Source: Escherichia phage AV108
Strand: one strand, 5' to 3'
Sequence record: OR352938.1
Length of the DNA: 64,000 nucleotides
A program made the translations under genes and the position numbers. The notes under the pieces were generated by a model. The model had not been told where the DNA came from. It made no database searches and saw only the letters and a program-made list of their open reading frames with translations. This document shows, in pieces, positions 29,193-29,891 of the stretch (positions within the stretch are counted from its first letter, which is position 1; each line of letters starts with the position of its first letter).

Positions 29193-29891
29193 CTAACCAC
29201 GGGTATAGTGTTCCAGAACAACTGTCAGATGAATATATTCTAATAGATCTTTCCAAAAGTCAACATCTGGTTCTTCCGGCATACCGTTTTTCTTTGCCTC
29301 TTCACGCGCGAGTTTAACACGCTCGTAGAGATCTTTCAATTCTTCCCGCACATTATCAAAGGTTCTTTCTCCTAACTTACACGCTAAAATAGAAGAACGT
29401 CGCGCGAGCGGGAATTGTAGATCACCAGTTTGATAGATTTCAAGTAGCTGATAACCAACACGCAGAGCATGAGAAAGATCTTTCCAGTTACTGAAATACT
29501 TTTCAGATTTTGCTACCTGTTTCTTGAGATAACCAGACAAACCCCACATCCCAACATGATAGAATTTATCGCGATGTGTTCGGATGTATTCCCATTCTCT
29601 GGAGGATTCAATCAACATGTTACTAGGAGCGTGCACCATGTCAATAGCGCCGATATCGCCTTTACATGCCAGATTGATAAACCGTTTTAGACTGAACATA
29701 TTAACGTCAATATCGTCTTTGGTGTTCTTGATACCTTGACCGCTAGTGCTTTGGTCATAGTGTTCTTTCATCGATCCTAAGATAATTTCTTTCGCAGTAG
29801 GAACAAAGATACCACGATAATCTTTATCTGAATTTTCAGTATCAAGGCCGTATAAGTGAGATCCGAAGACCATTTTAACCATTGTATGCAT
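29193..29891 (-). CDS. Pol-beta-superfamily nucleotidyltransferase, KNTase-like (N-terminal NTase plus C-terminal helical domain)
   Basis: 232 aa; FGSHLYGLDTENSDKDYRGIF fits the hG[GS]x(9-13)DxD NTase motif; third acidic cluster DDIDV; helical C-terminal half. Confidence 0.6.
   Translation of the reverse strand: MHTMVKMVFGSHLYGLDTENSDKDYRGIFVPTAKEIILGSMKEHYDQSTSGQGIKNTKDDIDVNMFSLKRFINLACKGDIGAIDMVHAPSNMLIESSREWEYIRTHRDKFYHVGMWGLSGYLKKQVAKSEKYFSNWKDLSHALRVGYQLLEIYQTGDLQFPLARRSSILACKLGERTFDNVREELKDLYERVKLAREEAKKNGMPEEPDVDFWKDLLEYIHLTVVLEHYTRG

Follow-up and report, generated by a model that had tools for sequence, protein, structure and literature searches.

The RB49-type nrdC.11 gene of Krischvirus, studied here in a 64-kb window (the whole stretch of DNA that was analyzed) from Escherichia phage AV108 (OR352938.1), almost certainly encodes an RlaP-family ortholog of T4 NrdC.11, a nucleotidyltransferase (NTase) of the Pol-beta type. 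By analogy with the characterized bacterial members of the family, and with a probability of about 0.62, this protein is an accessory of phage tRNA repair that puts back the nucleotides cut out by excising anticodon nucleases. It differs from its T4-type orthologs in lacking a folded insert of ∼100 amino acids (aa), through secondary loss in the Krischvirus lineage. The gene has already been annotated in public records (as “NrdC.11” and “nucleotidyltransferase”), its family has been named, and its role in phages has been predicted in print; the origin of the compact Krischvirus form by loss of a folded insert is a small new observation. With its identification as NrdC.11/RlaP, the gene no longer counts among the unexplained accessory genes of phages, and the belief that T4 lacks it is corrected.

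Family Identity and Orthology with T4 NrdC.11

The nrdC.11 coding sequence (29193..29891, minus strand) is an ATG-to-stop open reading frame (ORF) of 232 aa, with a ribosome-binding site, GAGGG, read directly from the sequence 7 nucleotides (nt) 5′ of the ATG (29899..29903, minus strand). Its product is 100% identical to the RB49 protein. An earlier note on this DNA, made from the sequence alone, had proposed a 232-aa ORF at this place and suggested that its conservation be checked in related phages. It is indeed conserved at at least 95% identity in 58 phage genomes, with 5 kb around it being 95 to 99% identical to most of the 58 matching Krischvirus genomes, and tblastn searches detected homologs of its product in 1,619 phage records. 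With matches to family profiles and this degree of conservation, the ORF is a genuine gene rather than a chance reading frame. A recent horizontal acquisition was rejected because the GC content of the gene (0.402) equals that of the window (0.401).

In the Pfam scan, RlaP (PF10127) was the only family to match the protein at an E value of ≤1 (3.4e-14, 53.6 bits versus a cutoff of 23), and no match to KNTase, Lnu, or AbiEii/MenT was found at that threshold. The match is collinear, with residues 7 to 191 corresponding to positions 24 to 198 of the 249 positions of the PF10127 model; in P0002, a 57%-identical compact homolog, it spans positions 23 to 229. The protein also matches the PHROGs family phrog_388 (“nucleotidyltransferase”) at 2e-79, and the NCBIfam scan returned no match. 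PADLOC gave only a chance CARF/HEPN match (E value of 0.03) in a 2023 library that may predate Hailong. Searches of the PDB with phmmer and two profiles gave only chance matches (hemoglobin, ribosomal protein L29, and USP8) in a copy of the database that evidently lacks PfRlaP. The family is large, comprising 7,835 representative clusters at an E value of ≤1e-3 in the profile search.

The statement in the earlier note that T4 has no obvious equivalent of this gene turns out to be wrong, because the copy in the close relative JSE is annotated as nrdC.11 and the RB49-type protein is matched, in two pieces and with an identity of about 45%, by the 336-aa NrdC.11 of T4-type phages; the identity to T4-type NrdC.11 proteins is 41 to 48% across the core that they share. 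Moreover, a 2006 comparison of T4-like genomes had already matched the orthologs of nrdC.11 with COG3541, a nucleotidyltransferase domain (PMC1524935). Among the matches listed (n = 120), the relatives are 41 to 57% identical to the window protein, and all of them belong to PF10127.

Active Site and Fold

The broad alignment of the RB49 protein with its phage relatives, compact Bacillaceae homologs, and canonical bacterial RlaPs (one of which scores 3e-51 to PF10127) contains eight invariant positions, G10, G15, S21, D22, D24, D62, K137, and R144. The sequence motifs named in the earlier note, GSHLYG (residues 10 to 15), SDKD (residues 21 to 24), and DDIDV (residues 59 to 63), are exact. The G10-S11-H-L-Y-G15 stretch (29847..29864, minus strand) represents the hG[GS] loop of the Pol-beta NTase fold, in which G10 and G15 are invariant and S11 is nearly so among the phage proteins, Bacillaceae homologs, and canonical RlaPs; the loop probably binds the triphosphate of the nucleoside triphosphate (NTP). 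The predicted first two catalytic carboxylates (DxD) are in S21-D22-K23-D24 (29820..29831, minus strand), where S21, D22, and D24 are invariant in every alignment, including that with canonical RlaPs. The predicted third carboxylate is D62 of D59-D60-I-D62-V (29703..29717, minus strand), the sole invariant acidic residue of this cluster, located on the strand comprising residues 62 to 67 of the model; the conservation of D59 and D60 is limited to the NrdC.11 and Bacillaceae clades. Since none of the three residues varies among the RlaPs of phages, those of Bacillaceae, and the canonical ones, the catalytic triad can be assigned from the alignment as D22/D24/D62 and is intact; the loss of the acidic triad on proper alignment, named in the earlier note as a possible refutation, is not observed.

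The remaining conserved motif, W136-K137-D-L-S-H141-A-L-R144 (29460..29486, minus strand), forms the start of the helix comprising residues 136 to 155, which in the AlphaFold2 model is the helical domain's second long helix. K137 and R144 are invariant family-wide; the invariance of H141 is confined to the NrdC.11 clade. By analogy with the crystal structure of PfRlaP (PMC12776372), K137 and R144 are likely to line the NTP/RNA cleft described there and to serve in the binding of NTP or of the RNA 3′ end.

The AlphaFold2 model, built on 33 homologs, has a predicted local distance difference test score (pLDDT) of 91.9 and a predicted template modeling score (pTM) of 0.88. In it, an alpha/beta NTase domain at the N terminus precedes an all-helical half (approximately residues 98 to 230) with a terminal helix formed by residues 210 to 230; the two-part organization proposed in the earlier note, a Pol-beta-type N-terminal NTase and a helical C-terminal half, is thus present in the model. 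The independent model available in BFVD for the identical protein superposes on it with a template modeling (TM) score of 0.97, and BFVD models of long-form phage RlaP-type NTases do so with scores of 0.78 to 0.84. The helical half resembles HEPN domains. In the crystal structure of PfRlaP, an N-terminal NTase domain is followed by a C-terminal helical domain with a terminal helix (PMC12776372), and the RB49 model shows this domain order, as judged from the published description. Foldseek searches of BFVD with the RB49 model also retrieved baculovirus HE65 and nucleotidyltransferases of giant viruses (Klosneuvirus, Terrestrivirus, and Yasminevirus) with E values of 1e-4 to 2e-8; these model-based matches suggest that RlaP-like NTases are widespread in eukaryotic viruses, too.

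Secondary Loss of the T4-Type Insert

An insert of 91 to 121 aa, placed between the first and second long helices of the helical domain, accounts for the length (305 to 390 aa) of the T4-type NrdC.11 proteins and of their bacterial relatives; within the T4 NrdC.11 ortholog group, the lengths are ∼305 to 345 aa. In the RB49 protein, alignment, insert lengths, and the nested phylogeny place the site of this insert at the short linker S129-N135 (SEKYFSN; 29487..29507, minus strand). The site holds 8 residues in the RB49 protein, 8 to 12 in compact forms, 9 to 11 in canonical RlaPs, and 18 to 22 in the Bacillaceae proteins. In the model of the T4-type protein P0017, the insert (approximately residues 131 to 240) is a folded alpha/beta module with pLDDT values of 72 to 93, composed, in this order, of a helix, two strands, a helix, three strands, and a long helix.

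In a neighbor-joining tree of the shared core, rooted on canonical RlaPs and bootstrapped 100 times, the RB49 protein and P0002, the only other compact relative, are found deep inside the long-form clade. The pair is monophyletic in 100 of 100 bootstraps, and its sister group consists entirely of long forms in all 100. Because the compact pair is nested in the long-form clade with this support, it follows that the insert was gained once and then secondarily lost in the Krischvirus lineage. The contig encoding P0002, of metagenomic origin, matches RB49 in gene order (M15 peptidase, glycyl-radical protein, NUMOD4/HNH, and RlaP), and P0002 is equally compact and keeps every invariant residue. Since such a divergent, syntenic homolog retains both the length and the residues, the short form has been maintained over considerable divergence, which argues against its being a dead remnant.

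Bacterial Relatives and the Predicted Role in tRNA Repair

The biochemical basis for assigning a function to NrdC.11 comes from two Pseudomonas proteins, PfRlaP and PaRlaP, which were found to add one or two nucleoside monophosphates to the RNA 3′-OH, with a preference for Mn2+, and to act on neither DNA nor E. coli proteins (PMC12776372, a December 2025 preprint). Both enzymes favor the break-site 3′ end (that of the 5′ half) of a cleaved-tRNA mimic and partly restore aminoacylation of tRNA that lacks one nucleotide of the anticodon loop, and the 3′-OH of the RlaP product suits a 5′-phosphate ligase such as Rnl1 (PMC12776372). The same work placed T4 NrdC.11 in the same Pfam family. Phage RlaPs had previously been predicted to restore RloC-removed nucleotides before ligation, and in jumbo phages RlaP shows the same distribution as the RNA ligases (PMC7824862). 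The wobble nucleotide is what RloC cuts out, and the resulting lesion was proposed to resist repair by T4 Pnk/Rnl1 (PMC2610378). Whether phage tRNA repair can overcome such nucleotide-excising anticodon nucleases has been a question since 2008, to which RlaP is the predicted answer.

The gene context of the bacterial relatives was surveyed by scanning one genome per prokaryotic species, which yielded 80 loci with relatives from the NrdC.11-type clade; the ORFs within 5 kb were clustered and checked against Pfam. RNA-repair genes were present in 11 of the 80 loci, the Pfam-confirmed neighbors being RtcB (7 loci), Ro60 (TROVE plus vWA; 6 loci), Hen1 (3 loci), and Pnkp (3 loci), as well as RtcA and the CCA-adding enzyme. 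Examples include the gene orders Ro60-RtcB-RtcA-long RlaP-compact RlaP-Hen1 on a Nitrosospira contig (L021), Hen1-Pnkp-RlaP in Asticcacaulis (L033), and CCA enzyme-RlaP-RtcB (L079). Because these neighbors are Pfam confirmed in loci of the clade, the RNA-repair association that gave the RlaP family its name holds for the NrdC.11-type clade itself.

Some of the repair operons contain tandem RlaP pairs (L021, positions 6001 to 7743, and also L045, L053, and L061), in which a long NrdC.11-type protein of 323 to 376 aa is followed directly by a canonical compact one of 255 to 278 aa. Such an arrangement suggests that the long and compact paralogs have nonredundant roles.

The genes for the other two enzymes of the predicted pathway are pseT, coding for polynucleotide kinase/phosphatase, and rnlA, coding for RNA ligase 1. 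They are located outside the window, and all 58 Krischvirus records, including RB49, carry both, the same number of records as carry nrdC.11. No tRNA genes were found within the window, and the matches for its large unannotated ORFs were limited to a DEAD-box-like helicase and gp38; neither a ligase nor a kinase was among them.

By analogy with the bacterial enzymes, we infer the activity of the phage protein, its tRNA-half substrates, and its action against nucleotide-excising nucleases. In the proposed mechanism, D22, D24, and D62 would hold two divalent metal ions, the G10-S11 loop and the helical-domain residues K137 and R144 would line the cleft for NTP and the RNA 3′ end, and the enzyme would add one or two nucleotides, untemplated, to the 3′-OH of broken RNA. 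PseT would act first, removing the 2′,3′-cyclic or 3′-phosphate and phosphorylating the 5′ end. NrdC.11 would then fill in the nucleotide lost to an RloC-type nuclease at the 3′-OH of the 5′ tRNA half, and RnlA would finally seal the tRNA from the 3′-OH/5′-P ends left by NrdC.11. As Rnl1 needs exactly these ends, the problem of end chemistry raised for RtcB would be avoided (PMC12776372). A fraction of the repaired tRNAs would become functional again, allowing the translation of late phage proteins to go on. A narrower proposal casts NrdC.11 as the third enzyme so far missing from T4-type tRNA repair, one that would specifically overcome the wobble-excising RloC nucleases; it is tentative, and we give it somewhat less than an even chance.

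Several points weigh against the assignment to tRNA repair. The addition to RNA 3′ ends is known only for the bacterial PfRlaP and PaRlaP, which fall in sequence cluster 1a, versus cluster 5 for T4 NrdC.11 (PMC12776372), and canonical bacterial RlaPs are only ∼13 to 22% identical to the RB49-type protein. Untemplated addition means that most repaired tRNAs would carry a wrong base (PMC12776372), and in the laboratory T4 can do without nrdC.11 (PMC9825161). In 69 of the 80 bacterial loci, several of them cut by contig ends, there is no recurrent repair neighbor, and in the Bacillaceae group not a single locus has one. In the phages, nrdC.11 is encoded apart from pseT and rnlA, ∼78 kb away from them in JSE. 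Finally, the loss of a folded domain of ∼100 aa that is kept by almost all of its own clade could have altered the choice of substrate.

Alternative Explanations

Addition of nucleotides to RNA 3′ ends could also serve purposes other than repair, namely tailing or capping of the ends to change the fate of the RNA. NrdC.11 might mark RegB-made, PseT-processed fragments of host or early phage RNA for decay, or block the acceptor ends of host tRNAs as MenT toxins do. Such roles would rely on the same family chemistry as repair. In total RNA of E. coli, species of the size of rRNA and of full-length tRNA are also labeled by PfRlaP, which has little NTP specificity (PMC12776372), and regB is only four genes downstream of nrdC.11, in the same orientation. 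The proximity to regB, however, is not kept in T4-type phages, where nrdC.11 is found beside nrdC.10 and mobD. The recurring bacterial neighbors are ligases and end-healing enzymes, neither nucleases nor toxins, and the AbiEii/MenT family gave no match at an E value of ≤1. Besides, RlaPs add only one or two nucleotides and, on a cleaved-tRNA mimic, choose the 3′ end at the break in preference to the acceptor end (PMC12776372). We therefore consider this kind of function unlikely, although it fares better than any of the other alternatives to tRNA repair.

An enzyme similar to KNTase, Lnu, or MntA would adenylylate a small molecule, such as an antibiotic-like compound or a signaling nucleotide, or else a protein, such as a toxin or a host defense protein. 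The earlier note favored this kind of role, having assigned the ORF the architecture of aminoglycoside/lincosamide NTases and MntA-type antitoxins. The C-terminal domain of KNTase resembles HEPN, as does the helical half of NrdC.11, and the two-domain fold shared with KNTase and LinB stands. Membership in these families does not: Pfam recognized only RlaP at an E value of ≤1, and searches of the PDB at an E value of ≤10 retrieved no KNTase, LinB, or MNT protein. The TM scores in structural comparisons with such enzymes are only 0.26 to 0.46 at 10 to 14% identity, versus 0.78 to 0.84 for the phage RlaP-type NTases. Among the Pfam-scanned neighbors of nrdC.11, no HEPN, toxin, or antitoxin-like gene adjoins it, and the context of its relatives is that of RNA repair. 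As to the nucleotidylation of a host defense protein, a toxin, or a small molecule, the characterized members of the family act on the RNA 3′-OH and leave E. coli proteins unlabeled (PMC12776372). Taken together, these data make a KNTase-like function improbable.

It is still less probable that NrdC.11 is a decaying or functionless remnant, inactivated by the loss of the ∼100-aa domain and kept as an ORF by chance. The insert typical of the clade is gone, and T4 nrdC.11 can be dispensed with (PMC9825161), but the Krischvirus ORF is intact and at least 95% identical in 58 genomes, its linker (8 to 12 aa in the compact forms) is as short as those of the canonical RlaPs that have no insert, the model is confident throughout, and the gene has a good ribosome-binding site and a genome-like GC content. 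P0002, on its syntenic contig, matches the Krischvirus protein in its compact length and retains all of the invariant residues. The decaying-truncation explanation was rejected on the basis of conservation, phylogeny, and linker length.

Very improbable, and the weakest of the alternatives, is a HalB-like function, in which the structural kinship with HalB would be a functional one and NrdC.11/RlaP (or its compact Krischvirus form) would make untemplated oligodeoxyadenylate or similar short oligo(deoxy)nucleotides as a phage decoy that mimics a host “guard” signal and keeps the Hailong HalA channel or another oligonucleotide-gated effector closed: HalB is of similar length (∼217 aa) and has its catalytic Asp pair, D21/D23 according to PDB entry titles, near the positions of D22/D24, and PfRlaP uses dATP efficiently (PMC12776372), but RlaPs need an RNA 3′-OH primer and stop at one or two nucleotides (PMC12776372), their bacterial neighbors are RNA-repair genes and not HalA-like membrane proteins, and PADLOC gave no such match, with the caveat on the age of its library noted above.

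Genomic Neighborhood of nrdC.11

As the earlier note had described, nrdC.11 is located between an HNH endonuclease and a cluster of three paralogous genes. The upstream neighbor (29910-30503, minus strand) encodes a NUMOD4+HNH_3 endonuclease. Downstream are three small tandem paralogous ORFs of 111, ∼81, and 64 aa (28338-28673, 28735-28980, and 28977-29171, all on the minus strand), which are followed by regB; their products are 34 to 42% identical to each other, share a C-x-H-L ... W motif, and have no Pfam match.

The endonuclease gene is variable in Krischvirus, being present in MIZ4 and absent from MIZ6. In JSE, a different homing endonuclease, of 176 aa, occupies the same site 5′ of nrdC.11; the divergent contig L085 has an HNH gene there, and in T4-type phages mobD is located beside nrdC.11. 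Because homing endonuclease genes adjoin nrdC.11 in several of these genomes, its 5′ flank looks like a recurrent landing site for such genes.

The scan for promoters and terminators found many consensus matches, barely above the shuffled expectation, and no conclusion on operons was drawn from it. One sigma-70-like promoter match is strong (TTGACA-17-TATTAT plus an extended TG); it is found in the 3′ end of vs.6 and is followed by a terminator-like hairpin with a 10-bp stem in the intergenic region between vs.6 and the HNH gene (30523-30608, minus strand); both are consensus matches only. Vs.6 itself (30552-30965, minus strand) contains a glycine-radical domain (PF01228, 1e-15), like that of GrcA, the “spare part” for pyruvate formate-lyase. 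Another nearby gene, tk.4 (26397-26852, minus strand), encodes a Macro-domain protein (PF01661, 6e-7). Macro domains bind or hydrolyze ADP-ribose, and Tk.4 may be relevant to ADP-ribosylation conflicts or to RNA 2′-phosphate processing. Farther away, a 489-aa ORF (4968-6437, minus strand), hypothetical in JSE, has a weak match to the DEAD/DEAH-box helicase family (PF00270, 3e-6, 27.4 bits versus a cutoff of 26).

Comparison with Known Systems

Among the NTases whose resemblance to NrdC.11 is limited to the fold or less, AbiEii/MenT, a comparison suggested in the earlier note, is represented by neither a Pfam match (E value of ≤1) nor a PADLOC match, and no antitoxin-like gene adjoins nrdC.11. 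In the MntA/MNT-HEPN systems, the NTase is accompanied by a cognate HEPN toxin; in contrast, the HEPN-like helical region of NrdC.11 is fused in the same chain, there is no such toxin alongside, and the family-wide invariants of this region are K137 and R144 and not an Rx4-6H motif. ANT(4′)/KNTase and LinB have the same succession of a Pol-beta NTase domain and a helical (HEPN-like) domain, with Foldseek E values of 5e-5 to 6e-4, but show no sequence-profile link to NrdC.11 (Pfam at an E value of ≤1; PDB with phmmer and two profiles at an E value of ≤10). The Hailong protein HalB (PDB entries 9dbh, 9dbi, and 9dbj) is likewise similar in fold, but at 13% identity, and no HalB chain was recovered from the PDB by profiles at an E value of ≤10. 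HalB, which is primed by a tyrosine and makes poly-dA processively, is paired with the HalA channel (PMC13434031); no HalA-like membrane effector was found beside NrdC.11, and none is recurrent in the bacterial loci.

The bacterial RlaPs of the RtcB-RlaP-RtcA operons, PfRlaP and PaRlaP (PMC12776372), belong to the same Pfam family as NrdC.11 and share with it the invariant three Asp residues, one Lys, and one Arg and a similar linker length at the insert site; judged from the published description, their compact NTase-plus-helical architecture with a terminal helix also appears to be the same. They differ from it in sequence, as noted above for their identity and cluster assignment, and in context: nrdC.11 is carried by a lytic phage, far from ligase genes, and its would-be partner is the 5′-phosphate ligase Rnl1, not RtcB.

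The closest counterparts are the T4-type NrdC.11 proteins (∼336 aa; RB6_097, Bp7, and VR7), which form an orthologous clade with the RB49 protein nested in its tree and have the same invariant motifs, GSHLYG, SDxD, KDDID, and WK..SH..R. A homing endonuclease gene is located immediately upstream in both lineages, but the locus itself differs, being found between vs.6 and regB in Krischvirus and beside nrdC.10 and mobD in T4-type phages. The structural difference is the absence from the RB49 protein of the folded alpha/beta insert. This makes the RB49-type protein a natural experiment on the contribution of that insert and, at 232 aa, a naturally minimal enzyme of the T4 clade that is convenient for biochemistry and crystallography.
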